Positions 1 through 52,898 of a stretch of 64,000 nt of DNA are shown piece after piece. Position 1 is the stretch's first letter. Every line of letters starts with the position of its first letter. Both the position numbers and the translations under genes were made by a program. Source of the stretch: Chloroflexota bacterium (GTDB lineage: Bacteria > Chloroflexota > UBA11872); the NCBI GenBank assembly GCA_965220075.1, contig OZ244806.1:519009-583008 (forward strand), given 5' to 3'. The notes below the pieces were generated by a model, which was not told the origin of the DNA, made no database searches, and worked only from the letters and a program-made list of their open reading frames with translations.

Positions 1-1251
1 CACTGCGGCCGCAAAGTGCGCCAGCAGTGAGAAGCGAGCCACCACCCGGATTCCCTTGAATACCGGGGTGTGCTCGAACAGTTGCAGGTAAGGCAGCGCA
101 ATGTCGCTGACGACCTCATGTCGCTTCCAATGCGTACCCAGCGAGAACAGCACGCCTGTTGCGGCGAGCGCTACGAGCACGAATGTGGTGGCTCGCAACC
201 CCTTGCCTGTAGCCCGCTGCCCAACCAAACCAGCCACCAGGCCCACGGCTGCGAAGAGCGGCGGAACGAATCCGGGAAAAACCCGTCGTTCACCGTGCGG
301 CACCGGAAAGCGCTCCATCAGTGCGCCGTACCACTGCAGACGCCCATTCGGCGACAGGTAGTCTCGAAGCTGCACCGACCAGAACTGGACCTCCGTGATA
401 TCGCGGTCTAGGCGCCAGGCCTCGCTGAAGGCGAGGTAACCATGCAGGATAGGGACGAACGGTGCGGTGACCGCGGCGCCGGCGGCGAGCATGGCCAGCG
501 CGCGCCGAACGTCTCGCTCCTTGGCGACACGGTGGACGGCCGGCGCTGCCACGAACGCCGCGTAGACCATGCCGGCGAGCACGCCCAGGTGCGCGTTGGT
601 GGTGAATTGCACCCAGACCATCAACGTCGCCAGCCCGAAGTCCAGCCAGCCGCCGCCTCTCCATACTCGAATGCCGAACAAGAGCACCAACGGCAGCCAC
701 CAGGCACCCAGAAACTGGAAGTGGCTGGCGTACGCCAGTTGCAGCGGCCCGAAGGCATAAATCGCGCCCGCGAGCAGGGCGCCGGGACGCGACCGCGTTA
801 GCGTGAGCACAGTCGCGTACATCGCGCCGGCGTTGAGGGCGAAGGCCGCGACGTGCGTCAGGCTGTAGGCCAGCACGGGGTTCTGGGTCATCCATGCAAG
901 CGGCGCGTAGACGGGCAGGTAACCGAGCACCAGATCGCTGCCATAGAGCGCTTCGCCCGAACCGAAGTAGAAGTTCCCGGTGAAGAAATCTCCCGGCTGA
1001 GAGAACAAGGCGAGGCGCATCCATTCCAACTGGCTCAGCAAGAAAAGCTGATCGCCGCTGGGTTTGTAGGCGATGTGGGTCCCCGCAACTAGCCACAGCG
1101 GGTACGTGAACAGGAGGGCGCAGGCTACGTACAGCAGCGCGGCCGCGGCCTCAGCGGTCCAGCGCGGGCGGCGAGGCGCGGCCGCGGCCGTCAAGCGCTC
1201 CAGCATTGGGGTTCGATCGTGCCGCCGCCGCGGCGCCAAGGCTCTTAGCAT
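1..1251 (-). CDS. Polytopic integral membrane protein (3' end truncated by the window edge); possible GT-C-like glycosyltransferase or transporter
   Basis: I translated the minus strand by hand. The frame is open from ATG 1251..1249 to the window edge (MLRALAPRRRHDRTPMLERL...), with many hydrophobic helices rich in W, F, L and Y. The ATG directly abuts the TAG stop of the upstream lipoprotein gene (TAGATG), which indicates translational coupling. The ORF track omits it because it runs off the window. Confidence 0.6.
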   Translation of the reverse strand, partial: MLRALAPRRRHDRTPMLERLTAAAAPRRPRWTAEAAAALLYVACALLFTYPLWLVAGTHIAYKPSGDQLFLLSQLEWMRLALFSQPGDFFTGNFYFGSGEALYGSDLVLGYLPVYAPLAWMTQNPVLAYSLTHVAAFALNAGAMYATVLTLTRSRPGALLAGAIYAFGPLQLAYASHFQFLGAWWLPLVLLFGIRVWRGGGWLDFGLATLMVWVQFTTNAHLGVLAGMVYAAFVAAPAVHRVAKERDVRRALAMLAAGAAVTAPFVPILHGYLAFSEAWRLDRDITEVQFWSVQLRDYLSPNGRLQWYGALMERFPVPHGERRVFPGFVPPLFAAVGLVAGLVGQRATGKGLRATTFVLVALAATGVLFSLGTHWKRHEVVSDIALPYLQLFEHTPVFKGIRVVARFSLLAHFAAAV

Positions 1252-2547
1252 CTAGCTCCGCCGGACGTCGCCCGTAACGACGTCCAGCACCCACAGCTCG
1301 GCCTCGCTTCTCTCCCCCTGGTACGCCAGGAAGGCCAGTTCCCTTTCCGATCGCCAGGTTGGTGACGTCGTCGCCCAACCGTCCGCAGGGTGCAGTCTCT
1401 CGGCGATCACTTGCGAGACCTTCTGTACGTTGTCCTGATCTACCCGATAGACCTCCACCACGGGAAGCAGCGGTGTGAGCAGGGCGGCCGCCAGGTGCTG
1501 GCCGTCGGGACTCCACCGCAACGACTCCACCGATCCGTCGTGTACGAACGTCGTCACCGTGTTCACGCCGGAGGCGATGTCCAGCACGCCGGCGATGTGG
1601 CTGGTGGCGCCGGCCGTCGACCACGCCAAGCGCCGGCCGGACGAGTTCAGCGCTACCGGCCCGAATCGCGGCGCATCCACCGCAAACGCAAGACCATCTT
1701 GGGAACCTTGCGCCTCGCCGCCGGCCAATGGGTCCCAGTGGCGCGGCAGCTCGCGCAGGTGTAACAGCTTGACCTCCGCGCCGCCGGCCGTGCGCAGCAA
1801 CAGCTGGCCGTCCACGCCCTCGACGCGCCCGCGGGCGAGCGTTAGAAAGCCGCTCGCCGACCCGCCGCCGGTGAACCGGAGCGTATAGCTGACCTCGATT
1901 CCGCTGGCCGAAATCTGCCCGCGCGCGTCCACGCGCACGCCCACGCCGGGAATGTTCTCCGCGCGCATGGCCAGAGCTCCGTCGCTGGTCACTCTGATGC
2001 GCATGTCGCCTAGCAGGTCGTCCGACTGTGCGGTGAAGGTTGCGCCGTTCGCGTTCCAGGTGCCGCCAAACTCCCGTACCGGGGGATCCAGCAGCCCGAA
2101 CACGGGGCCGTCCACGTCGATGGTCAAGCGCGCGTCGCCGGCCGCTGAGACCTCGATATCGACCATCGCGGCGCCCGAGGTGCCGAACGTGAGGTTCTTC
2201 CAAACGCCGTGCCAGAGCCCATCCACCGCCGCGGACAAGCCGGATACCGGTGCCGAGGTGGCGTCGGGCCGCGGCGTCGCGGCGGCCGTGGGGAGGCGCG
2301 TGGCAGTAGCCCGCGGGCTGGGCGTCGCTTTGGGGCTGGACGCCGGCGAAGCCGTGCCCGTGATCGCTGGCGCGGCGGGCTTGCCGCTGGCGGGCTCGAC
2401 GGCAGGTCCCGGGCTGACGCTGGACGCCGCTGGCCCGTCCGTCGCCGTCGGGCCGGCCTGGCTTGTCGGAGCGTTCGTCTGGTCCGGGCCGCACGCGCCT
2501 GTGCCGGCCGCCACGGCGAGCGCCAGCAGGGCAAGCGCCAGACGCAT
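1252..2547 (-). CDS. Lipoprotein with a Thr/Pro/Ala-rich linker and a C-terminal PD40/TolB-like beta-propeller
   Basis: Internal start MRLALALLALAVAAGTGAC is a signal peptide plus lipobox; the ATG is at 2547..2545. There is a long PT-rich linker, then repeats containing WSPDG, which is the PD40 signature (LRWSPDGQHLAA). The N-terminal 180 aa of the listed 612-aa ORF is Arg-rich and was rejected as an artefact. Confidence 0.6.
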   Translation of the reverse strand: MRLALALLALAVAAGTGACGPDQTNAPTSQAGPTATDGPAASSVSPGPAVEPASGKPAAPAITGTASPASSPKATPSPRATATRLPTAAATPRPDATSAPVSGLSAAVDGLWHGVWKNLTFGTSGAAMVDIEVSAAGDARLTIDVDGPVFGLLDPPVREFGGTWNANGATFTAQSDDLLGDMRIRVTSDGALAMRAENIPGVGVRVDARGQISASGIEVSYTLRFTGGGSASGFLTLARGRVEGVDGQLLLRTAGGAEVKLLHLRELPRHWDPLAGGEAQGSQDGLAFAVDAPRFGPVALNSSGRRLAWSTAGATSHIAGVLDIASGVNTVTTFVHDGSVESLRWSPDGQHLAAALLTPLLPVVEVYRVDQDNVQKVSQVIAERLHPADGWATTSPTWRSERELAFLAYQGERSEAELWVLDVVTGDVRRS

Positions 2548-25801: not shown

Positions 25802-26821
25802 TCAGGCTATCACCAGCACGTGGGGCGCCGCCCACATGCGGTGGCCGCCCGGCGTGGGGTCGAGCCCAAACACTTGCTGCGGCGTCAACATGGGGCGGTC
25901 CGAGAATCGCGGCGCGTAGGGGTTGGCCTGAAAGAGCTTCAGGCCACGCCACTGTATTCGTGGATACCTCTCTTGGCTGGTCAGTTCGTTGTACGCCCAT
26001 ACTTTGACGTCCGGCGAGCCAAACCCATCCGCGTCGATCACCAGCTCCACCTCGGGAAACACCTCGAGATCGTGCTTGTGCGAAATCATCGTCCAACCTG
26101 TGGTGGCCAGGTCCGCAAACTGATGGACCATCAACAGCTTCTTGAAAGGCAGGTTCTCGTCACGCACGTAGGTGGCCAGAAGCTCCTGCGCCCGATTGAT
26201 CGCATCGGCTGTGAGGTGCCCAATCGGATCTCCCGGCATCGTTTGTCCGGGTCGAGTCGCGAACTCAGGGTCCAGGGCCACGTGCACGTTGGGGTACGCC
26301 AGAAAGCCCGCGTCGATCATCCGGCGTATGAAGTACAGCGGCGACAGACGACCCATCTGGGCATCCAGCACCACCGCCATCCCGCGCTCCCGCGCTGGCT
26401 CGATGTAGTCCCCGATGATGTCCACGCCGGATGCGTCCAGCAGGATTACGCAAGAGTCGTCGTCGCTGTAGCACGGCCGCGCCACTGCGTAGAGTAAATG
26501 CGGGGCGAGCGTTACGGGGCGGTTATCGTTCAGTTGCCCTACGCTGTCCGCCCACGGCTGCACTCTCTGGGCCATCTCATCGAGCGATTGCACGGCGCCG
26601 AGCATCCCGAGAACGGGCGCGACCCCGAAGCTGCGGCCGTAGACCGTGATCAGCGTGCGGTCGCCTATGAACGACTGTGGCCGGGGTGGTGAAGGATCGG
26701 CCTTAGCGTCCTGCGGGTACGGGATGAGGCCATCCGGGGGGAACGCGGGATCGTAGATGTCCCATGCTCCAGCGTTCCGAGTGGCCAGGAGCCCGGCGGC
26801 CCCTCCCGCCAACAGGCCCAA
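25802..26821 (-). CDS. Secreted/lipoprotein-like hypothetical protein (possible glycoside-hydrolase-like TIM-barrel)
   Basis: N-terminal LLAGGAAGLLA signal-like segment. No diagnostic motif was recognised. Composition and codon usage look coding. Confidence 0.45.
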   Translation of the reverse strand: MGLLAGGAAGLLATRNAGAWDIYDPAFPPDGLIPYPQDAKADPSPPRPQSFIGDRTLITVYGRSFGVAPVLGMLGAVQSLDEMAQRVQPWADSVGQLNDNRPVTLAPHLLYAVARPCYSDDDSCVILLDASGVDIIGDYIEPARERGMAVVLDAQMGRLSPLYFIRRMIDAGFLAYPNVHVALDPEFATRPGQTMPGDPIGHLTADAINRAQELLATYVRDENLPFKKLLMVHQFADLATTGWTMISHKHDLEVFPEVELVIDADGFGSPDVKVWAYNELTSQERYPRIQWRGLKLFQANPYAPRFSDRPMLTPQQVFGLDPTPGGHRMWAAPHVLVIA

Positions 26822-27046
26822 CCCACCTTTGACAAGCGACCGCCGTCCTCCCCTTTTTTGCTGCCAAGTCCCTGGCGCTGGCAGGCGGTCTAGCAGTGAG
26901 CGGTCCTTAGTCGGGGCGCAAAAACATTCCTGTTACGTAGGTGTTGACCATAGTGTACAGCGCTTCTCGGCTCTGCCAATTCCAAAACTCCGATGTCGCT
27001 CCGCGGCCGGCTGGAAACCTCGGCCCGGGCTATCGCCAAGAGGGGA

Positions 27047-28141
27047 CTAAGTGAGCGACCTGCGCAGGCGGCGCCGTTCCCGGTGCCGCTCCAGCGCCAG
27101 CTCGATCAGGCGCGACATCAGCTCCCGGTCGCCAACGCCGCTCGCCCTCCATAGCTTCGGGAACATGCTGATCGAGGTGAAACCCGGAATCGTATTGATC
27201 TCACTCACGAAGGGATCGAGCGACCCGCCGTCGACCAGAAAATCCACCCGGGCATACCCAGCCGCGTCCACCGCGCGAAACGTCCGCACGGCCATTTCTC
27301 GAAGACGCTCCGACAGCTCCGCCGGCAGGTCAGCCGGAATCACCTCCCGCGAGGTTCCATCGACGTATTTGGCCGCATAGTCATAGAACTCGTTGCCGGG
27401 GATCACTTCGCCGCACACGGACGCTTCGGGCGCGTCGTTGCCTAGCACGCTCACCTCGATCTCACGCGCCGATGGGACCGCTTGCTCGACGATGACGCGG
27501 CGGTCGAACTCGGCCGCCAGCCGCAGCGCCGCTGCCAGCTCGGTGCTGTCGTGAGCCTTCGAGATGCCCACGCTGCTTCCCAGGTTGCAAGGCTTTACGA
27601 ACACCGGATAGTCGAAGCCGCCTTCAACCTGGCGCCGGACGCGGTCAAGTTCGTGCTGAATGTCACGCCGCGTTACTATTATCCAGTCGGCTACCGGCAG
27701 CCCGCTGTCGCGCAGCACGCCGTTCGTGATCCCTTTGTCCAGGCCCACGGCCGATCCGGCTACGCCCGACCCCACGTACGCCAGGCCGGCCAGCTCGAAG
27801 AGTCCTTGCACGGTGCCGTCCTCGCCGTAGGTCCCGTGCAGCACCGGGAACACTACGTCCAGCCGCCCGATCGAATGTTCGCCCGCGCGCCGCCGCACCT
27901 CGGCGATCGGCAGCGCGGCGGGCAGACTCACTCCGTCCGCCGCTCGCTCACCGCCGTCGGTCAGCACGCTCATCGGATCGGCGCTCAGCAGCCACTCGCC
28001 CGCGCGCGTGATCCCTATGGGCACAACCTCGTATAGCTCCGGGTCCAGGGACTCGAGCACGAAGCTGGCCGAGCGCAGCGAGACTTCGTGCTCGCCGGAG
28101 CGGCCTCCGAAGACCACCCCCACGCGCAGACGCCGGTTCAA
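27047..28141 (-). CDS. ddl: D-alanine--D-alanine ligase
   Basis: [16 protein letters not shown]...[25 protein letters not shown]...EINTIPGFT. The TTG start overlaps the pyrE stop. Confidence 0.9.
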
Positions 28142-44089: not shown

Positions 44090-45440
<1,351 letters not shown>

Positions 45441-45838: not shown

Positions 45839-46116
45839 CCGCCCATCGGGGCCTACATCCGAACCCGCCGTCCTTCCCGTACCAGCCTCTGGCGCTGCTG
45901 GGATCTCGGTGGGCTCACAGATCGGCCCGCCGACCAGCGCGGGGGGGGCAAAATCTTGACAGTCTGGCGCGCCTCTACTAGCGTTTTGCCGTGGAGCATC
46001 TGGCAAGTGCTCCGTTACCCCCCTAGCCACTTCGCTGGCTGGGATAGAGGCTGCCTGCGGGCGGTCTCTGCCGCTTTAAGGGCTCGATTACAACAATCAA
46101 GCAGCGCACGAATTTA

Positions 46117-46335
46117 GTGACATGTCCGGCCGCCACCATCTACGTGGACGGATTCAACCTCTACTATCGCGCCCTTCTAGACACGCCTTGGCGCTGGCTG
46201 GACCTCCAGGCCCTGGCTGTCCGGCTGCCCGGACTGTATTGGCGCCATTGGCAATCTGTGGGGCCTAAAAAAAATCGAGACCTACCCACGAGCAGCGCGA
46301 TAGACGGCGCGTCACTGAAGTTGTGCCCCGCGTAG
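46117..46335 (+). pseudogene. Remnant of a NYN-domain (LabA/DUF88-like) gene
   Basis: TIYVDGFNLYYRALL matches the NYN N-terminal signature. The ORF ends after 72 aa. The surrounding region has lower GC. Confidence 0.35.
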
Positions 46336-46345
46336 ACTCTACGCG
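46329..46345. promoter_or_regulatory. Perfect palindrome cgcgtaga-c-tctacgcg 40 bp upstream of the ATPase gene
   Basis: 8-bp arms with a 1-nt spacer, seen directly. It may be an operator or a terminator. Confidence 0.3.
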
Positions 46346-46382
46346 CGGGCAGCGGCGTGGTGCCGACACGGAGGGGTGACGG

Positions 46383-47561
46383 ATGCAAATCGAGAGCATC
46401 CAAATCAAGAACTACCGGCTCTTTCGCAGCGTCACCCTGAGTGATCTGCCGCGCATGGCTGTGGTCGTGGGCGCCAACGGGTCAGGCAAATCGACGCTGT
46501 TCGACGTCTTCACCTTCCTCAAGGACGCGCTGACTCAGAACGCCGCCGCGGCGGTGGCCAGGCGCGGCGGATTCCGCGAGTTGGTCAGCCGCGGTGAGCA
46601 GGGTCCAGTCGGAATCACCATCAAGTTTCGCGAGAGCGGCGGGCGGCTGGCGACCTATCTGCTCGATGTTGCCGTAGCGAGCGGGCGCGTGGTCGTGGAC
46701 CGCGAAGTGCTGCGCTACCGCCGAGGCCAGGGAGGCGGTCGGCCCTGGCGCTTCGTGGACTTCTCGCGAGGTGCCGGAACCGCAATCACCAACGAGTCTG
46801 CCTATGGCCAGGAAGGCGTGGACGAGGAGCGCGAGAACTACGAGCTCGACGATCCTAGCGTCCTCGCCATCAAGGGCCTGGGTCAATTCCGCGAGTTCCG
46901 GGTAGTCGCGGAGTTCCGCAACCTGATCGAGAACTGGCACGTCTCAAACTTCCATGTCGCCGACGCCCGGCCTAGCGCCGAGGTCGGCTACGCCGAGCAC
47001 CTTTCCACCCGCGGCGACAACGTCGCGCAGGTTGCTCAGTACCTCTACGAGAACGAGCGCGAGCGCTTCAACCAGGTCCTCGCGGCCATGAGCCGGCGCG
47101 TCCCTGGCGTGAGCGGCGTCGAGGCCAAACCCACCGAGGACGGGCGTCTTGTGCTGCGCTTCCAGGACGGCAGCTTCCGGGACCCGTTCATTGCCCGCTA
47201 CGTCTCGGACGGCACGATCAAGATGTTCGCCTACCTTGTGCTGCTCTACGACCCCAAGCCGCACCCCCTGCTGGCAATCGAGGAGCCGGAGAACCAGCTC
47301 TACCCCGAGTTGCTGCCGGAGTTGGCTGAAGAGTTCCGCGACTACGCGCGGCGCGGCGGCCAGGCGTTCGTTTCGACCCACTCGCCCGACTTCCTGAACG
47401 GAGTGGAGCTCGACGAAATCCTCTACCTGGTCAAGCAGGACGGCTTCACCACCGTGCACCGCGCTCGTGAGAGTGAGTTACTGCGCAATCTGGTGGCAGA
47501 GGGGGACTTGCCAGGCGCGCTGTGGAAGCAGGGGCTGTTCGAAGGCGCGGGGATTCAGTGA
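46383..47561 (+). CDS. AAA_21/ABC-type ATPase, OLD-family N-terminal-domain-like (AbiLi-like)
   Basis: IQIKNYRLFRSVTL...VVVGANGSGKSTLFD (Walker A)...LLAIEEPENQLYPELL (Walker B/D-loop)...STHSPDF (H-loop). No fused nuclease domain. Confidence 0.75.
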   Translation: MQIESIQIKNYRLFRSVTLSDLPRMAVVVGANGSGKSTLFDVFTFLKDALTQNAAAAVARRGGFRELVSRGEQGPVGITIKFRESGGRLATYLLDVAVASGRVVVDREVLRYRRGQGGGRPWRFVDFSRGAGTAITNESAYGQEGVDEERENYELDDPSVLAIKGLGQFREFRVVAEFRNLIENWHVSNFHVADARPSAEVGYAEHLSTRGDNVAQVAQYLYENERERFNQVLAAMSRRVPGVSGVEAKPTEDGRLVLRFQDGSFRDPFIARYVSDGTIKMFAYLVLLYDPKPHPLLAIEEPENQLYPELLPELAEEFRDYARRGGQAFVSTHSPDFLNGVELDEILYLVKQDGFTTVHRARESELLRNLVAEGDLPGALWKQGLFEGAGIQ

Positions 47562-48118
47562 GCCGGCTGGTGCTTCTGCTCGAAGAGGCCTCCATGAAAA
47601 CACTTCTCGATAGGCTTCTGCCACGGCTCTTCCCAGACCTGACGTTCCTCTGTGTTAGGCATGAGGGCAGGCAGGACCTCGAAAAGAGCATCCCGCGCAA
47701 GCTGCGCGCATGGCGGGAGCCGGGAGTCCGCTTCCTAGTGCTGCGGGACAACGACGGCGGCGACTGTCACGCCCTGAAAGATAGGCTCCTCGGACTCTGC
47801 CGGCAGGGCGGCCGGGGCGATTCGCTGGTGCGGATCGCGTGTCAGGAACTCGAAGCCTGGTACCTGGGCGAGCCGGAGGCGCTGGCGGACGCGTTTTGCA
47901 ACGAAGAGCTGCGTGGGATCCGCCGACTGGCGCGCTATCGAAATCCAGACGCGGTCGCGACGCCATCTAAAGCTATCAAGCGGCTCATACCTGAGTTCCA
48001 GAAAATATCGGGCGCCCGCCGGATGGCGCAGTTCCTTTCAAAGGAACGCAACCGATCCACCAGCTTCCAGACGCTGCTGCGCGGAATTGAGCGACTCTGT
48101 CCGGACGCCTCCCAATAG
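47558..48118 (+). CDS. DUF4276-family protein (TOPRIM-like E...DxD), AbiLii-like partner of the ATPase
   Basis: The GTG overlaps the ATPase stop (GTGA). LVLLLEEASMKTLLDRLLPRLFP...FLVLRDNDGGD carries a conserved Glu and a DxD, consistent with a split OLD-family TOPRIM. Confidence 0.6.
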   Translation: MSRLVLLLEEASMKTLLDRLLPRLFPDLTFLCVRHEGRQDLEKSIPRKLRAWREPGVRFLVLRDNDGGDCHALKDRLLGLCRQGGRGDSLVRIACQELEAWYLGEPEALADAFCNEELRGIRRLARYRNPDAVATPSKAIKRLIPEFQKISGARRMAQFLSKERNRSTSFQTLLRGIERLCPDASQ

Positions 48119-48353
48119 GGACCAACCGCCCATGGGTGAGTGCCCGCAAGCCGATCGAGGTCGATCTGTCACTGGATGACATCAATGCGGCGTCGGTGCA
48201 TGGCATGGGAAGGCTGTCCCGCGACGTGGCCAGAGGGCATCGTTTTGGGATATGGACCCGCGGGTTTCGTCAGAAGTTTGGACTCTGGCCGTCCTGACCG
48301 CGCTACGCTGCCGTCGTACTGCATTTTGAAGGCCGCGGCCGGCTAGAAGCTCC

Positions 48354-49082
48354 ATGCGCGTCGCGCTTTTTGCAGACGTTCACGCCAACCTGACGGCGCT
48401 GCGGGCCGTCTTGGCGGACATCCGGGCGCGCGGCCCGTTCAATCTCATCGTCTCCGACGGCGACCAGATAATGGGTGGGCCGCGTCCGCTCGAGGTTTGG
48501 AGCGAGCTGCGGGAAGGCGGTGTGACGCTGCTGCGCGGCAACGTAGAACGCGATCTCGGCAGCGGCCGTTTCCCGCCTGAGCCTGCCGGCGGAAAGAACC
48601 GCGCCGCCATCGAGTCGGTTTTCTACTGGACCCTGGAGCAAGTTCCCGACCAGGTGCGCGCGGCGGCCGCGGGGCTTCCCGCGGAACTGAAGGTCGAGAT
48701 GGACGGCGCGCCGCCTCTCGTGGTCGTGCACGCCAACCGAGACAATCTGGACGACTTCATATGGGAAGACACCCCGCCCGCTGAGTTGCGGCGTTTGATC
48801 GGCCACCCGCCGCCGGGTCTGCTCGTGCTCGGTCACGTGCACGCGCCGCTCGACATGCAGTTCGAGTCGACCCGTATCGTGCGCCCTGGCAGTGTGGCCC
48901 TGAAGTACGAGGCCGACGTGTACAACCTGGCGCACTGGGCCGAGGCCGCCTGGGACACCAGCGTCGGCGCCTGGACCTGCCGCAGTCACGTCGTGGCCTG
49001 GGACCACCGCGCGGAGATCGAGGCGGCTTACGCCGTCGGGTATCCCGGCGTCGAGATATTGCCGGGATTCGACCGCGCCTGA
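48354..49082 (+). CDS. Calcineurin-like metallophosphoesterase (YfcE-like)
   Basis: MRVALFADVHAN...VSDGDQI...GNVE...LLVLGHVHAP. Confidence 0.75.
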   Translation: MRVALFADVHANLTALRAVLADIRARGPFNLIVSDGDQIMGGPRPLEVWSELREGGVTLLRGNVERDLGSGRFPPEPAGGKNRAAIESVFYWTLEQVPDQVRAAAAGLPAELKVEMDGAPPLVVVHANRDNLDDFIWEDTPPAELRRLIGHPPPGLLVLGHVHAPLDMQFESTRIVRPGSVALKYEADVYNLAHWAEAAWDTSVGAWTCRSHVVAWDHRAEIEAAYAVGYPGVEILPGFDRA

Positions 49083-49185
49083 CGCCCAGAGCTGCTGTCA
49101 GCGCGCGGCCGTCCCTTGTAGGCGAGTAGCCTGACTGCGATGCTTGAGCAGAATGTTGAGTGGGGGGGCTGCGGTTGTGAGCACG

Positions 49186-49524
49186 ATGGTCACCGAGGAC
49201 GAGGTTCGCGAGAAGCTGGGCACCGTGATAGATCCCGAGATCGGGATCGGCATCGTGGATCTCGGGCTCATCTATGAAATCGCCATAGCGCCCTATCACC
49301 CCGAGGAGGGCGAGCCGGAGGCTGAGCCGGAGGACCTGGCGGTCAAGGTCACCATGACGCTTACCACGCCCGGCTGCCCGGCCGGTCCATACATCCTGCA
49401 GCAGGTGAAGGAGCAGGCGGAGTCGATAGACGGCGTAAGGAAATCCAAAATCGACCTGACCTTCAGCCCGATGTGGAACGAAGACATGATGAGCGAGGAC
49501 GTGCGCTGGATCCTTGGCCGCTAG
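49186..49524 (+). CDS. DUF59/MIP18-family Fe-S cluster assembly protein (SufT-like)
   Basis: TEDEVREKLGTVIDPEIGIGIVDLGLIYEI...TMTLTTPGCPAGPYI. Confidence 0.65.
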   Translation: MVTEDEVREKLGTVIDPEIGIGIVDLGLIYEIAIAPYHPEEGEPEAEPEDLAVKVTMTLTTPGCPAGPYILQQVKEQAESIDGVRKSKIDLTFSPMWNEDMMSEDVRWILGR

Positions 49525-49617
49525 GCGGTTTCGATCGGCCGGGTTGCAAACCGACTCCATAGTCCTAGCCTTCTACCTCGATCAGGCTGGCCGCGAGCGC
49601 GCTAATCCGCCGGGTAC

Positions 49618-50355
49618 TTGATCGTGCGGATCAGCTTCACCAAGCTCGATCTCTTCGAGTTCTGCCCTTGGGCCTACCGCTACCGCTACGTCGAGCGAAT
49701 CCCCACGCCGTTTTCACCGCGGCTTGCCACCGGCGCCGCGGTTCACGCCGTGCTGCGGCGGTTCTTCGAGCGCCTGCAGTCGGGCGCGCAGGCCGGACTG
49801 TCCGAGCTTCTCGCTATGTACGAGGACTATTGGGCTGGTGCGCCTTGGCTCGATCCGGCGCGGCAGCCAGACCTGTGGGACCGGGGTCTGGCGCTTCTCA
49901 AAGGCTTTTGGGCCGCCAACGCGGCTAACCTGGGCCGTCCTGTTCTGCTTGAGGCGCGCTTTCGTGTATCGCTGGAGCCAGGTGATCGGCACACCGTGGA
50001 GGGCCTGATCGACCGCGTGGACGAAACGGCTGGCGGCGTGGAGATCATCGATTACAAGAGCGGCGCCCGGCCCGACGGCTTGCCCGAGTACACGCGTACC
50101 CAGCTGCACACTTACGCGCTTGCCGTCGAACGCCAGTTCGGTTTGACCCCTGTGCGTCTTACGGCCTACTTCCTTAGCGACAACCGCGCCTTGTCGTCCG
50201 CGCCGGATCGCGGCTATGCCAGCCGACTGCGAAAGCGCTTCGCGGCTGCCGCCGCTGACATCGCCGCGGGGAGTTTCGGGGCGACTCCCGGACCGCAGTG
50301 CGCGCGCTGCGATTACGCCGACCGCTGTCCCCATAAGTGGACCGAAGGCGCGTAG
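49618..50355 (+). CDS. PD-(D/E)XK-superfamily nuclease with a Cas4/AddB-like four-Cys cluster
   Basis: The FCPWAYRY N-terminal Cys plus the C-terminal CARCDYADRC give the 1+3 Cys spacing of Cas4/RecB-family Fe-S nucleases. The central IDRVDE...IIDYKSG matches the D...E-x-K core. Confidence 0.6.
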   Translation: MIVRISFTKLDLFEFCPWAYRYRYVERIPTPFSPRLATGAAVHAVLRRFFERLQSGAQAGLSELLAMYEDYWAGAPWLDPARQPDLWDRGLALLKGFWAANAANLGRPVLLEARFRVSLEPGDRHTVEGLIDRVDETAGGVEIIDYKSGARPDGLPEYTRTQLHTYALAVERQFGLTPVRLTAYFLSDNRALSSAPDRGYASRLRKRFAAAAADIAAGSFGATPGPQCARCDYADRCPHKWTEGA

Positions 50356-50500
50356 CCCGACCCGGCCGGATACGGGACCGTTTCGCGCCCCAAGGCGCAA
50401 GGCTTGCTCGTCGGTAGGAGCGAAAGAAGACCGGGGCGAAACGCGGCCGAAAAAGCCTCTTTTAGTCTACCCGGGCAAGTCGTAGGAGTCGCGAGACCCT

Positions 50501-51802
50501 CTAAGAGCCGAGCCGTCCATTGCCGCCGGCGATCGGGCAGGATCCGGCCTCGCAATGATGATCGCGGATGTGCGCCTCGAACTCGTCGCGGAAGATCCGC
50601 ACCGCGCCGCGCACCGGCTGATGAGCGAAATGGCCTAGAGCACAGAACGAAGCCATCATGCTGGCGCCCAGCTCCTCCAGCAGATCGAGGTCGTCCATTG
50701 TTCCCTGGCCGTGCATGATGCGCTCGCAGATTTGCACCAGATTGGGCGCACCCTCACGGCAGGGAATACAGAATCCGCAGCTCTCTTCCTCGAAGAAGAG
50801 GGCGTCCCGATAGGCCGCGTCCACCATGCACGCCGAGTCGTCGTATACGACCACGCCTCCGGTGCCCATGATGGTCCCCAGCGCGGACATGGATTTCGGC
50901 TCCAGCGGCGCGTCCAGATTGTCGGGCCCGAGCGGCGCCGAGGAAGCCCCGCCGGGCTTGAAGCCCTTCAACGGCCGCCCGCTGCGTACTCCTCCGCCGT
51001 ATTCGAAGATCAGCTCGCGCGCCGTAGTGCCCAGGGGCAGCTCGTGCACGCCGGGATTCGCGACGTGTCCGGAGAGGCAGTACATCTTCGTGCCCGCCGC
51101 GCCGCCCGCGCCCAGGCCCTGAAACCACTCGGCGCCCTTCGTCACGATATCCGGCGCGCAGGAAAGAGTCTCGACGTTGTTGATCGCCGTCGGCTTGCCC
51201 CAAACCCCCACGTTAGTCGGGAAGGGCGGCTTGAAACGCGGATTGCCCCGCTTGCCTTCCAGCGAGTTGAACAGCGCGGTCTCCTCACCAACTATGTAGG
51301 CCCCGGCGCCGCGCCGGAACTCTAGATCGAAGTTGAAGCCCCTCTTGCCCAGCACGTCCTGGCCCAGATAGCTCGCCTGGTAGGCCTCGCGCATCGCCGC
51401 CTGCACGCGCTCGTGGGACAGCCCGTACTCGCCCCGAATGTAGACGTACCCGCGCTCCGCGTTGGCCGCGTAGGCGGCGATGAGCATCCCTTCCAGCATC
51501 AAGTGGGGATCGAGCTCCAGCGAGTAACGGTTCACGTAAGTGCCGGGCTCGCTCTCGTCGCCGTTGCTCACGACGTAACGCGGCGTCTTCGGGTCCTTGC
51601 GTACGAACTCCCACTTGAGTCCGGTCGGGAAGAAGGCCCCCCCGCGCCCCGTCAGACCGGAGGCTTTGATGACATCGGTCACGTCCTCCGGGGCCATCTC
51701 GCGCAGCACCCGCTCGAGCGCTTCATAGCCGCCGGCTTCACGGTACGACCGCAGCGTCCACGACTCCGGCCGCCCGAAGTTCTTGGTGACCACCCGTTCC
51801 AT
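50501..51802 (-). CDS. nuoF: NADH dehydrogenase flavoprotein subunit (NuoF/51-kDa family)
   Basis: GRGGAFFPTGLKW...NGDESEPGT...ESCGFCIPCREG...C (N3 cluster). ATG at 51802. The N-terminal Arg-rich 77 aa of the listed ORF were rejected. Confidence 0.85.
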   Translation of the reverse strand: MERVVTKNFGRPESWTLRSYREAGGYEALERVLREMAPEDVTDVIKASGLTGRGGAFFPTGLKWEFVRKDPKTPRYVVSNGDESEPGTYVNRYSLELDPHLMLEGMLIAAYAANAERGYVYIRGEYGLSHERVQAAMREAYQASYLGQDVLGKRGFNFDLEFRRGAGAYIVGEETALFNSLEGKRGNPRFKPPFPTNVGVWGKPTAINNVETLSCAPDIVTKGAEWFQGLGAGGAAGTKMYCLSGHVANPGVHELPLGTTARELIFEYGGGVRSGRPLKGFKPGGASSAPLGPDNLDAPLEPKSMSALGTIMGTGGVVVYDDSACMVDAAYRDALFFEEESCGFCIPCREGAPNLVQICERIMHGQGTMDDLDLLEELGASMMASFCALGHFAHQPVRGAVRIFRDEFEAHIRDHHCEAGSCPIAGGNGRLGS

Positions 51803-51807
51803 TGGCT

Positions 51808-52329
51808 TCAGACCTCGCCGTCGCGCAGCTCGCGAATCAACACCGGCACGTCTTCCGGCCGTATCGGTCCGCGCTGATCCAGGTTCACCGACATGGCTGG
51901 TTGTTTGTCGCACAGGCCCAGGCAGGAGACGGCCTCGATCTTGAACTCGGAGTCGCCGCTCACCTCGCCTCGCCGGATTCCCAGCTCCTGCTCCAGCGCC
52001 GCGAAGACCCCCTGCGCGCCGGCCAGGTGGCAACTCAAATCACGGCACACGCGCAAAATGTGCTTTGGCTGAGGCGCCAGGTAGAACATGGTGTAGAAAG
52101 TCGCAACGCCAAAGACTTGGCTTTCGGGAATGCGGAGCTCCTCGGCGATCGTGCTGATCGTCTCCGGGGGCACGTAGCTGAACAAGGCCTGCGCGGCGAA
52201 CAGCGCCTCTAGCGTGGAGCCCGGCCGGCCTTTGAACTCCCGCAGTTGCGCGCGCAGCCGCTCGAGCTTAGGTTGGTCCTCGGATCGCAGCGCCGGCCGG
52301 CCGGGAGCGCCGGCTTCCGTCACCGCCAT
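51808..52329 (-). CDS. nuoE: NADH dehydrogenase 24-kDa subunit (NuoE, 2Fe-2S)
   Basis: CRDLSCHLAG...VSCLGLCDKQPAMSVN. ATG at 52329. Confidence 0.85.
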   Translation of the reverse strand: MAVTEAGAPGRPALRSEDQPKLERLRAQLREFKGRPGSTLEALFAAQALFSYVPPETISTIAEELRIPESQVFGVATFYTMFYLAPQPKHILRVCRDLSCHLAGAQGVFAALEQELGIRRGEVSGDSEFKIEAVSCLGLCDKQPAMSVNLDQRGPIRPEDVPVLIRELRDGEV

Positions 52330-52898
52330 TGGCGGCGCAGGTCGAAAAGGCCCACGGCCAAGCGAGCGCTTCCTTCCTGAAGGGGGCGAACGGAGGCCGA
52401 GTCTATCACCTGGGGCTGCGGCGTCAGACCGGGACGTACCCATGACCCGGCTGCGGCTCGCGTTCGTGAATGTCCCAGCCTGGGCTGCGACGCCGCGTTA
52501 GGCTGCGTTCGACAGCACGTCCGAGGCGCATCCGATGGCCCTCACCCAAGCTCAGGCCCGCGAGCTGCGCAGCCTCATGCAAACCTGGAATAAGTCGTCC
52601 CGCGAAGTCGGCGACATGCTGGGCGGTTCCGCCGTGACGGCCGGCGGCTTGCAGATGAACCGTCTGCGCGCGGCGATGGATCGCCGCTCGCAGGCTGAGC
52701 AACTCGTAATAGCCTTCTGGTCCCGCACCTCCTAGAGATCGGGATTTCAGCCCGACCCGAGCTCGCGGGCCGACCGGCCGGCGTGACCCGGCTTGCAAGA
52801 TCCGCCGGCGCTTGAAAGCGCGCGCCTCTATCCGTCCGATCGGAGGCTGGCGGGCCGAGCGCGGCATAATTGACCGACTCGGCTAAAGGGGCCGCACC

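Follow-up and report, generated by a model that had tools for sequence, protein, structure and literature searches.

An intact HEC-01-type ATPase and DUF4276 gene pair outside any Hma system in a Chloroflexota genome

A two-gene arrangement of an ABC ATPase with a TOPRIM protein, with a predicted OLD-like metal site, has been described from Hma (helicase, methylase, ATPase) systems as HEC-01, i.e., Hma-embedded candidate 01 (Payne et al., bioRxiv 10.1101/2024.01.29.577857), which raises the question whether such a pair works by itself or serves solely as an effector arm within methylation systems of Hma/MADS type. HEC-01 counts among the more abundant candidates in environmental genomes, yet its phage assays conflict, one being negative and one positive. 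Here we analyzed a locus that bears on this question, found in a stretch of 64,000 nt (hereafter the window, numbered from its first letter) of a Chloroflexota bacterium (GTDB lineage Bacteria; Chloroflexota; UBA11872; assembly GCA_965220075.1, contig OZ244806.1, forward-strand positions 519,009 to 583,008). An ATPase gene and a DUF4276 gene overlap there outside any Hma system, and we consider them probably a functional defence or addiction module, namely an intact, co-translated two-gene module of HEC-01 type. The locus is most likely a clean natural example of a pair that stayed intact after its Hma neighbours were lost, with both genes under purifying selection.

The upstream gene (gene 1; 46383..47561, plus strand) encodes an ABC-type ATPase of 392 aa, and the downstream gene (gene 2; 47558..48118, plus strand) a putative TOPRIM-like nuclease subunit of 186 aa, with residues numbered from the GTG at 47558. 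The ATPase matched AAA_21 (PF13304, 6.7e-31, residues 25-338) and AAA_15 (PF13175, 3.1e-21) in Pfam, where no nuclease or other further domain was found in it, and the sole Pfam family matched by gene 2 was DUF4276 (4.8e-15, score above gathering). In PADLOC-DB, the ATPase matched the HEC-01 models PDLC04144 (2.6e-174, residues 1-390 of 392) and PDLC04182 (3.4e-127), both over the full length, gene 2 matched PDLC04143 (1.5e-59, full length) and PDLC04202 (1.2e-32), and the next-best matches of both proteins were further HEC-01 models. An ATPase profile, a TOPRIM/DUF4276 profile and adjacency on the same strand, which is what the HEC-01 model asks for, are all found here (with a 4-nt overlap); the embedding in an Hma system, the source of the name and not required by the model, is absent. 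Judged by these profile matches, the pair is a member of HEC-01, a candidate system already catalogued. Its architecture is known: it has been published, profile hidden Markov models (HMMs) exist for it, it has been assayed twice, and at least 576 species-level genomes encode a relative. The finding is thus not new in kind, and its added interest, which is modest, comes from the orphan state, the flanking remnants and the swapped nuclease allele. A first-pass annotation of this DNA had proposed a split OLD-family or AbiL-like abortive-infection candidate, made of an AAA_21 ATPase lacking a nuclease domain and a translationally coupled DUF4276 gene of about 190 aa; the HMM searches that it asked for place both proteins inside the proposed families (AAA_15/21 and DUF4276/TOPRIM), and the PADLOC comparison, also on its list, gives the pair the name HEC-01, a label absent from that annotation. 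For annotation in general, an "AAA family ATPase" followed by a DUF4276 gene beside housekeeping genes is better named HEC-01-type than AbiL, PARIS, RecF or SMC. The PADLOC labels of the two best models are themselves reversed with respect to Payne et al. and to the other HEC-01 models, with HEC-01A (PDLC04143, 190 positions) being the TOPRIM protein and HEC-01B (PDLC04144, 395 positions) the ATPase.

The ATPase carries the ABC-type motifs read by the first-pass annotation, i.e., Walker A (GANGSGKS, 30-37), Walker B (LLAIEEPE, 296-303) and H-loop (STHS, 331-334), together with a signature-like SDGT (275-278), and by sequence it belongs to the AAA_21/AAA_15 clade of OLD, GajA, AriA, PtuA and Mad3. 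Its TGA stop (47559-47561) is shared with a GTG (47558-47560) in frame with gene 2, producing a GTGA start/stop overlap (47558..47561, plus strand) of the kind expected for translational coupling. As listed, the open reading frame (ORF) of gene 2 opens at 47522, in a frame other than that of gene 1, and public gene calls start at 47570 (182 aa) or at the ATG 47594 (174 aa), the latter of which would cut off strand 1 and the catalytic Glu9/Glu10. The true start is most likely 47558, because the overlap is conserved among relatives, as are the N-terminal strand and Glu9/Glu10. A start/stop overlap was present in 63 of the 67 related loci with an alignable N-terminus (4 nt in 46, of which 37 ATGA and 9 GTGA; 13 nt in 9; 1 nt in 8) and is therefore not due to chance, which bears out the proposed coupling and suggests that starts of such DUF4276 genes should be moved to the overlapping codon.

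Gene 2 contains the two motifs noted in the first pass, LLLEEAS (Glu9/Glu10) and RDNDGGD (Asp64, Asp66, Asp69), and its proposed TOPRIM core was borne out by an AlphaFold model built on an alignment of 63 homologues (mean pLDDT 92.9). The modelled core runs beta-alpha-beta-alpha-beta-alpha-beta (strands 3-8, 29-34, 57-64, 90-94) and is followed by helices. Among the values listed in the fold comparison of this model were 11.9 for the C-terminal region of Burkholderia OLD (6nk8), 10.0 for Thermus OLD (6p74), 9.6 for an uncharacterised Pyrococcus protein (2p62), 8.6 for AriB (8v46) and 8.1 for GajA (8u7i). Glu9/Glu10 directly follow strand 1, Asp64 closes strand 3 and Asp66 comes next, so that in the model the acidic residues take the TOPRIM arrangement; the four-stranded beta-alpha core, the Glu after strand 1 and the DxD after strand 3 that mark the OLD-like branch of the TOPRIM superfamily are all there. 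DUF4276 has independently been placed in the Toprim superfamily, with Mad4 of MADS noted as a DUF4276 homologue (PMC12065111). The protein is thus predicted to be a stand-alone nuclease with an OLD-like TOPRIM core and a helical C-terminal part, whose putative catalytic residues are Glu9/Glu10, Asp64-x-Asp66 and Glu99. When 1.84 billion representatives were scanned in full with HMMER, 1285 relatives came up; in 44 of them at 34-56% identity E9, G37, D64, E99, S167 and S169 were invariant, and E10, D40, D66, C70, K74, R92, C95, W101 and D131 were at least 90% conserved. His35, Cys70 and Cys95 (around 47660, 47765 and 47840 in the window) show little or no variation within the DUF4276 family and may form a structural or metal site, one not described in the OLD literature consulted.

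The layout resembles that of several known systems, of which HEC-01 is the closest, with an ABC ATPase gene followed by a TOPRIM/DUF4276 gene on one strand and close relatives embedded in Hma systems as in Payne et al.; the window copy differs in lying outside any such system, beside ribosomal-protein and pheST genes. The OLD family (class 1, P2 Old and Thermus OLD; class 2, Burkholderia and Xanthomonas OLD; and Gabija GajA) has an ATPase of the same clade, but OLD and GajA are single polypeptides whereas the window holds two separate genes, no TOPRIM_OLD model was matched by gene 2 at the sequence level, and a UvrD/GajB partner as in Gabija is missing from the window. PARIS likewise consists of two genes, for an ABC ATPase (AriA) and a separate TOPRIM nuclease (AriB), and is a plausible template for the mechanism, as its ATPase cages the nuclease until a trigger frees it (PMC11464382); however, AriB is a DUF4435 protein of about 300 aa unlike the 186-aa DUF4276 protein, which gave no AriB match, and the match of the ATPase to AriA is of the generic AAA_21/AAA_15 kind. 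The AbiL system of Lactococcus (AbiLi/AbiLii) is also bicistronic, with an ATPase and a TOPRIM-related effector, and the window ATPase matched the PADLOC model of AbiLi (4.4e-23, over part of the profile), but AbiLii belongs to the RloB family (PMC10440598) and gene 2 had no RloB or AbiLii match at E up to 0.1. Menshen (NsnA/B/C) has a related ATPase in NsnB (5.5e-19), and some of its NsnC effectors end in a DUF4276 TOPRIM domain, but neither NsnA nor NsnC was found and gene 2 stands alone rather than as a C-terminal domain of NsnC. As for MADS, Mad3/Mad4 pair an AAA_21-type ATPase with a DUF4276 protein and MAD3 (NF047739) is the best NCBIfam match of the ATPase (7.6e-35), but at 120.9 bits against a cut-off of 420, with no NCBIfam match and no mad4 match for gene 2 and no other mad genes in the window. 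The PADLOC matches of the ATPase to AriA, AbiLi, mad3, NsnB and GajA were all far weaker than those to HEC-01 and generic to AAA_21, gene 2 matched no AriB, AbiLii, mad4 or NsnC model of PADLOC, and sequence searches of the Protein Data Bank (PDB) with both proteins returned only generic P-loop or chance matches and no relative with a solved structure. By sequence, therefore, the pair is not AbiL, PARIS, MADS or Menshen, with which it shares only the layout of an ATPase and a separate TOPRIM nuclease. The first-pass reading stands as a split OLD-like ATPase/TOPRIM candidate organized like AbiL and PARIS, and falls as a claim of membership, since AbiLii is RloB and gene 2 matches neither of these, nor DUF4435 or AriB.

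The ATPase has thousands of homologues, with identities of 72-85% to representatives from more than 10 phyla; the best (80-85%) are from Latescibacterota, Dehalococcoidia, Acidobacteriota, Planctomycetota, Elusimicrobia, Nitrospirae, proteobacteria and others. PheS from this genome, by contrast, shares only 54-73% identity with its next relatives, of which those with a name are Chloroflexota, which puts the host in that phylum. In comparisons of the window with other phyla, the proportion of synonymous differences (pS) was about 0.69-0.75, i.e., saturated, and that of nonsynonymous differences (pN) was 0.14 in the ATPase gene vs. 0.27 in the nuclease gene; because synonymous sites are saturated at such low pN, the likeness across phyla reflects constraint rather than recent transfer. 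The pair with its overlap was found again in more than 150 related loci of more than 10 phyla. In 81 genome loci, gene 2 was intact and adjacent to the ATPase gene in 58, intact but spaced in 2, apparently disrupted in 15 and absent in 5, with one locus ending at the contig end; many of these assemblies are long-read metagenome-assembled genomes, and some of the disruptions may be errors. Plasmids carry more distant copies, e.g., pSYSM of Synechocystis PCC 6803 (25994-27735), where the ATPase is 55% identical, the DUF4276 gene lies directly 3' and the pair sits among toxin-antitoxin, HNH and phosphorothioation-associated methyltransferase genes; being in a model cyanobacterium, this copy is a tractable system for testing the HEC-01-type family. 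Among 50,697 phage records only one distant homologue (33%) was found. An orphan clade from Latescibacterota (three loci) has ATPases about 80% identical with a slightly longer C-terminus and no trace of a DUF4276 gene, flanked by sulfatase and MATE-type transporter genes.

In 63 of the 115 loci with readable context, the pair lies between the DUF1156 methylase and the HEPN_Swt1+DUF499 genes of an Hma system, and in the other 52 it is an orphan. Of the 80 genome loci, 23 showed this embedding, as did 42 (67%) of the 63 metagenomic loci with enough downstream sequence; an SNF2/NOV_C helicase lies further upstream in embedded loci, and HmaC comes directly after the pair in these 42 of 63 metagenomic loci. 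Median identities to one such locus (L083) were 81% for HmaA, 80% for the ATPase, 70% for HmaB, 69% for HmaC and 60% for the nuclease, so that conservation of the ATPase is on a par with that of the Hma helicase, and within the block the nuclease evolves fastest; the idea of a hyper-conservation unique to the ATPase had to be tempered accordingly, as the helicase is equally conserved. Orphans are spread through the clustering, with a few orphan-only clades (including Dehalococcoidia with intact pairs). The genes next to orphans are for the most part those of ordinary metabolism, and HerA, restriction-modification (type I or IIG), SoFic and GmrSD genes occur beside some copies. Of the eight nearest relatives of the window ATPase, seven lie within Hma systems.

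The same arrangement is found in two sister strains of this sample, and both ORFs are intact in all three strains. The ratio of nonsynonymous to synonymous rates (omega) between the window and one of them (L082) was 0.15 in the ATPase gene and 0.30 in the nuclease gene, i.e., both genes are under purifying selection, and the ATPase and nuclease distances between loci correlate (Mantel r 0.70, reached by 0 of 999 permutations), i.e., the two are co-inherited. In the same strain comparison, the ATPase and the flanking genes have a dS of 0.016-0.034, and gene 2 has a dS of 0.336 and a dN of 0.10. The region of higher divergence, which takes in gene 2 and sequence beyond it, extends from about 47500 to about 48300 (9900-10750 in L082) and differs at about 12% of positions vs. 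about 1% in the background, and the gene 2 allele of L082 is intact. The tract looks like a nuclease allele imported by homologous recombination rather than decay, and as a case of allele exchange it is a hint only.

Neither HmaA, HmaB nor HmaC was found within the 64-kb window, nor was any methylase, DUF499 or helicase gene. What remains next to the pair are two short ORFs. The upstream one (72 aa, 46117..46335, plus strand) has a single PADLOC match, to HEC-09 (6.2e-5, residues 7-37 on profile positions 5-37 of 203), after which the homology is lost; this NYN-domain N-terminal stretch of about 31-37 codons (46135..46227, plus strand) also matches the N-terminus of a full-length NYN ORF (634..1374; tblastn 1.5e-4) that sits between helicase and methylase in an Hma locus (L090) which carries the pair as well, and by its sequence the ORF is the start of a truncated NYN gene. 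The downstream ORF (53 aa, 48136..48297, plus strand) begins with RKPIEVDLSLDDINAAS, which resembles the extreme N-terminus of DUF1156/HmaB methylases (KKLIEVALPLDAINKAS), a marginal likeness (E 0.03 to 1.2). Its sole PADLOC match is HmaB (E 0.032, residues 2-22 on profile positions 6-26 of 973, corresponding to 48139..48201, plus strand); tblastn gave E 1.2 and 0.03, not significant alone, an HMM purpose-built from HmaB N-termini had its best six-frame match in the whole window at this very spot, but with E 0.39, and the gene order of gene 2 followed by an HmaB methylase occurred in none of 160 loci. A possible HmaB-type methylase remnant here is weakly indicated and is a lead only. A tblastx search of the flanks (45839-46382 and 48119-48353) against 80 genome loci matched only the two sister strains.

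On both sides, the surroundings belong to the core genome. A related genus (locus L086) has rpmI-rplT-spoU-pheST on one side and metallophosphoesterase, FeS-assembly, PD-(D/E)XK and nuoFE genes on the other, the latter in the same order as in the window (48354-52443, with nuoF/nuoE), and in the slot between them it holds a 592-aa ORF without Pfam or PADLOC match in place of the glyoxalase gene and the HEC-01 cassette. As this genus keeps both flanks without the pair, the pair occupies a variable slot in a conserved core genome. The first-pass annotation had counted a mobile element, a gene remnant and nuclease-like neighbours as supporting context: an IS110 element, the remnant and a PD-(D/E)XK gene are there, but that gene (49618-50355, Cas4-like matches only) is syntenic in the related genus that lacks the pair, hence part of the core genome and no evidence for a defence island.

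By analogy with the systems above, the pair most likely works as a nuclease that is gated by the ATPase and directed at phages or other mobile DNA. The ATPase and the nuclease would form a complex in which the former keeps the latter inactive or loads it, and the sensing of a cue from phage or foreign DNA, combined with the binding or hydrolysis of ATP, would license metal-dependent cleavage at the TOPRIM site (Glu9/10, Asp64/66, Glu99). The target could be DNA or possibly tRNA, and the invader would be either destroyed directly or stopped by abortive infection, with precedents in OLD/Gabija (DNA) and PARIS (tRNA). The copy most likely descended from an Hma-embedded cassette whose neighbours were deleted, because most of the nearest ATPase relatives are Hma-embedded and an NYN remnant lies upstream, and it would now act, if at all, alone. 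In the study that also ranked HEC-01 among the 12 most abundant system types of a cold-seep survey (PMC12881386), E. coli B gained protection from one HEC-01 representative against one or more of T4, T5 and T7. The homologous mad3/mad4 pair is needed for defence in MADS (methylation-associated defence system) of Pseudomonas aeruginosa, where deletion of mad5 is tolerated only if mad2 or mad3 is removed too, a sign of a toxic effector role (bioRxiv 10.1101/2023.03.30.534895). The frequent embedding of relatives in Hma systems, the defence genes beside some orphans and the neighbourhood of the pSYSM copy likewise favour a part in defence. Several points weigh against this interpretation. That positive report is sparse in detail, the HEC-01 that Payne et al. 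(bioRxiv 10.1101/2024.01.29.577857) assayed failed to protect E. coli from any phage in their set, HEC-01 is still handled as an unvalidated candidate (PMC12853721), and the literature holds no biochemical or structural study of any family member. The neighbours in the window are housekeeping genes (ribosomal-protein, pheST) and not a defence island, and since this subfamily is as conserved as the Hma genes around it and is Hma-embedded in 67% of the metagenomic loci with enough downstream sequence, it may need the Hma partners that are absent here. The AlphaFold model of the ATPase (47 homologues) reached a pLDDT of only 52.5 because the alignment was too shallow (80-85% identity), so that the ABC fold, the oligomer state and the contact with the nuclease are presumed, and the substrate (DNA or RNA), the trigger and the abortive outcome are drawn purely from analogy.

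It is unlikely, in our estimate, that the pair is instead a leftover sub-module of a decayed Hma/MADS-type system, an effector arm that gives no defence alone and is heading to loss. Such a relic would fit the Hma embedding of its nearest relatives, the position of HmaC directly downstream in two thirds of the metagenomic loci that extend far enough, and an ATPase about as conserved as HmaA, like an integral subunit; the NYN remnant upstream, the weak HmaB-like one downstream and the lack of any Hma gene in the window agree with it, as does the failure of HEC-01 alone in the assays of Payne et al. Moreover, mad3 and mad4 work within MADS as parts of an eight-gene system. The absent (5) or apparently disrupted (15) gene 2 copies of the 81 loci point in the same direction, but many of the latter come from long-read metagenome-assembled genomes, where misassembly may account for them. 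At this locus, the two ORFs and all their motifs are preserved in three strains, omega is low in both genes (0.15 and 0.30), the imported L082 allele is intact as well, and the host-like GC content at third codon positions (GC3) of the ATPase gene (0.84) suggests long residence without decay. Elsewhere, orphans make up 52 of the 115 loci and include orphan-only Dehalococcoidia clades with intact pairs, and the one protective representative was reported to work without Hma. A broader and tentative extension of the defence interpretation, which we rate as possible but well short of probable, is that orphan HEC-01 pairs are modules of defence or addiction that function autonomously after repeated escapes from Hma systems; it is suggested by the strong constraint on the ATPase, the roughly twofold faster evolution of the nuclease and the exchange of a nuclease allele between co-occurring strains. 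If true, a near-invariant sensor or motor would be joined to a swappable effector targeted by counter-defence.

The toxic arm suggested by the MADS data would also suit a chiefly toxin-antitoxin-like addiction module, in which the TOPRIM nuclease is the toxin and the ATPase its neutraliser; such a module would serve to stabilise itself or the DNA next to it, with any phage defence arising as a by-product. We give this a small chance, slightly below that of the relic. NetFlax found AAA ATPase "antitoxins" partnered with toxins of the TOPRIM_OLD or RloB type, and neutralisation was validated for some of these pairs (PMC10440598); the tight coupling with the ATPase first, the patchy occurrence across more than 10 phyla and on plasmids, and the more frequent loss or disruption of the nuclease gene than of the ATPase gene in the sampled loci (subject to selection bias) are compatible with it. 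Type II antitoxins, however, are typically small and labile whereas the neutraliser here would be a highly conserved ATPase of 392 aa, and embedding in methylation-based defence fits immunity better than plasmid addiction; the two functions are not mutually exclusive in any case. A housekeeping role in DNA repair or recombination, as a RecF/SMC-like ATPase with a TOPRIM nuclease, appears very improbable. Some homologues are named "recombination protein F" or "chromosome segregation protein SMC", but the weak N-terminal matches to RecF, SMC and Rad50 models behind such a reading are, for RecF and SMC, confined to the P-loop region and far under the family cut-offs. The very strong amino-acid conservation and the housekeeping neighbours would suit a core function, but the related genus lacks the pair in its syntenic slot, the pair has a patchy, non-taxonomic spread with ATPases 80-85% identical across phyla vs. 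54-73% for PheS, and its relatives are mostly Hma-embedded. A functional HEC-01-type module thus remains our preferred explanation for the pair in the window.

Some further features of the locus were recorded. A putative GGAGG Shine-Dalgarno-like motif (46370..46374, plus strand), read from the sequence, lies 8 nt 5' of the ATPase ATG, and a consensus scan gave one weak sigma-70-like promoter match upstream of both genes (TTGGCA-16-AAAAAT, 46248..46275, plus strand; 1 found vs. 0.4 expected). Repeats, terminators and tRNAs around the pair did not exceed chance. The GC3 of the nuclease gene (0.74) is lower than that of the ATPase gene, and the host-like value of the latter ruled out a compositional island. 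Neighbouring genes were considered as parts of the system and rejected, as PADLOC gave no match for the metallophosphoesterase, the 592-aa ORF or an Rv1352-like gene of the other sister strain (L001). Compared with L082, the IS110-family element (44156-45353), whose transposase gene (44177..45226) is on the minus strand, is cleanly inserted. At the same rpmI/glyoxalase spacer, L001 has a different insert of 675 bp, which carries the Rv1352-like gene, and the window, L082 and L001 thus represent three haplotypes of one spot in one population.

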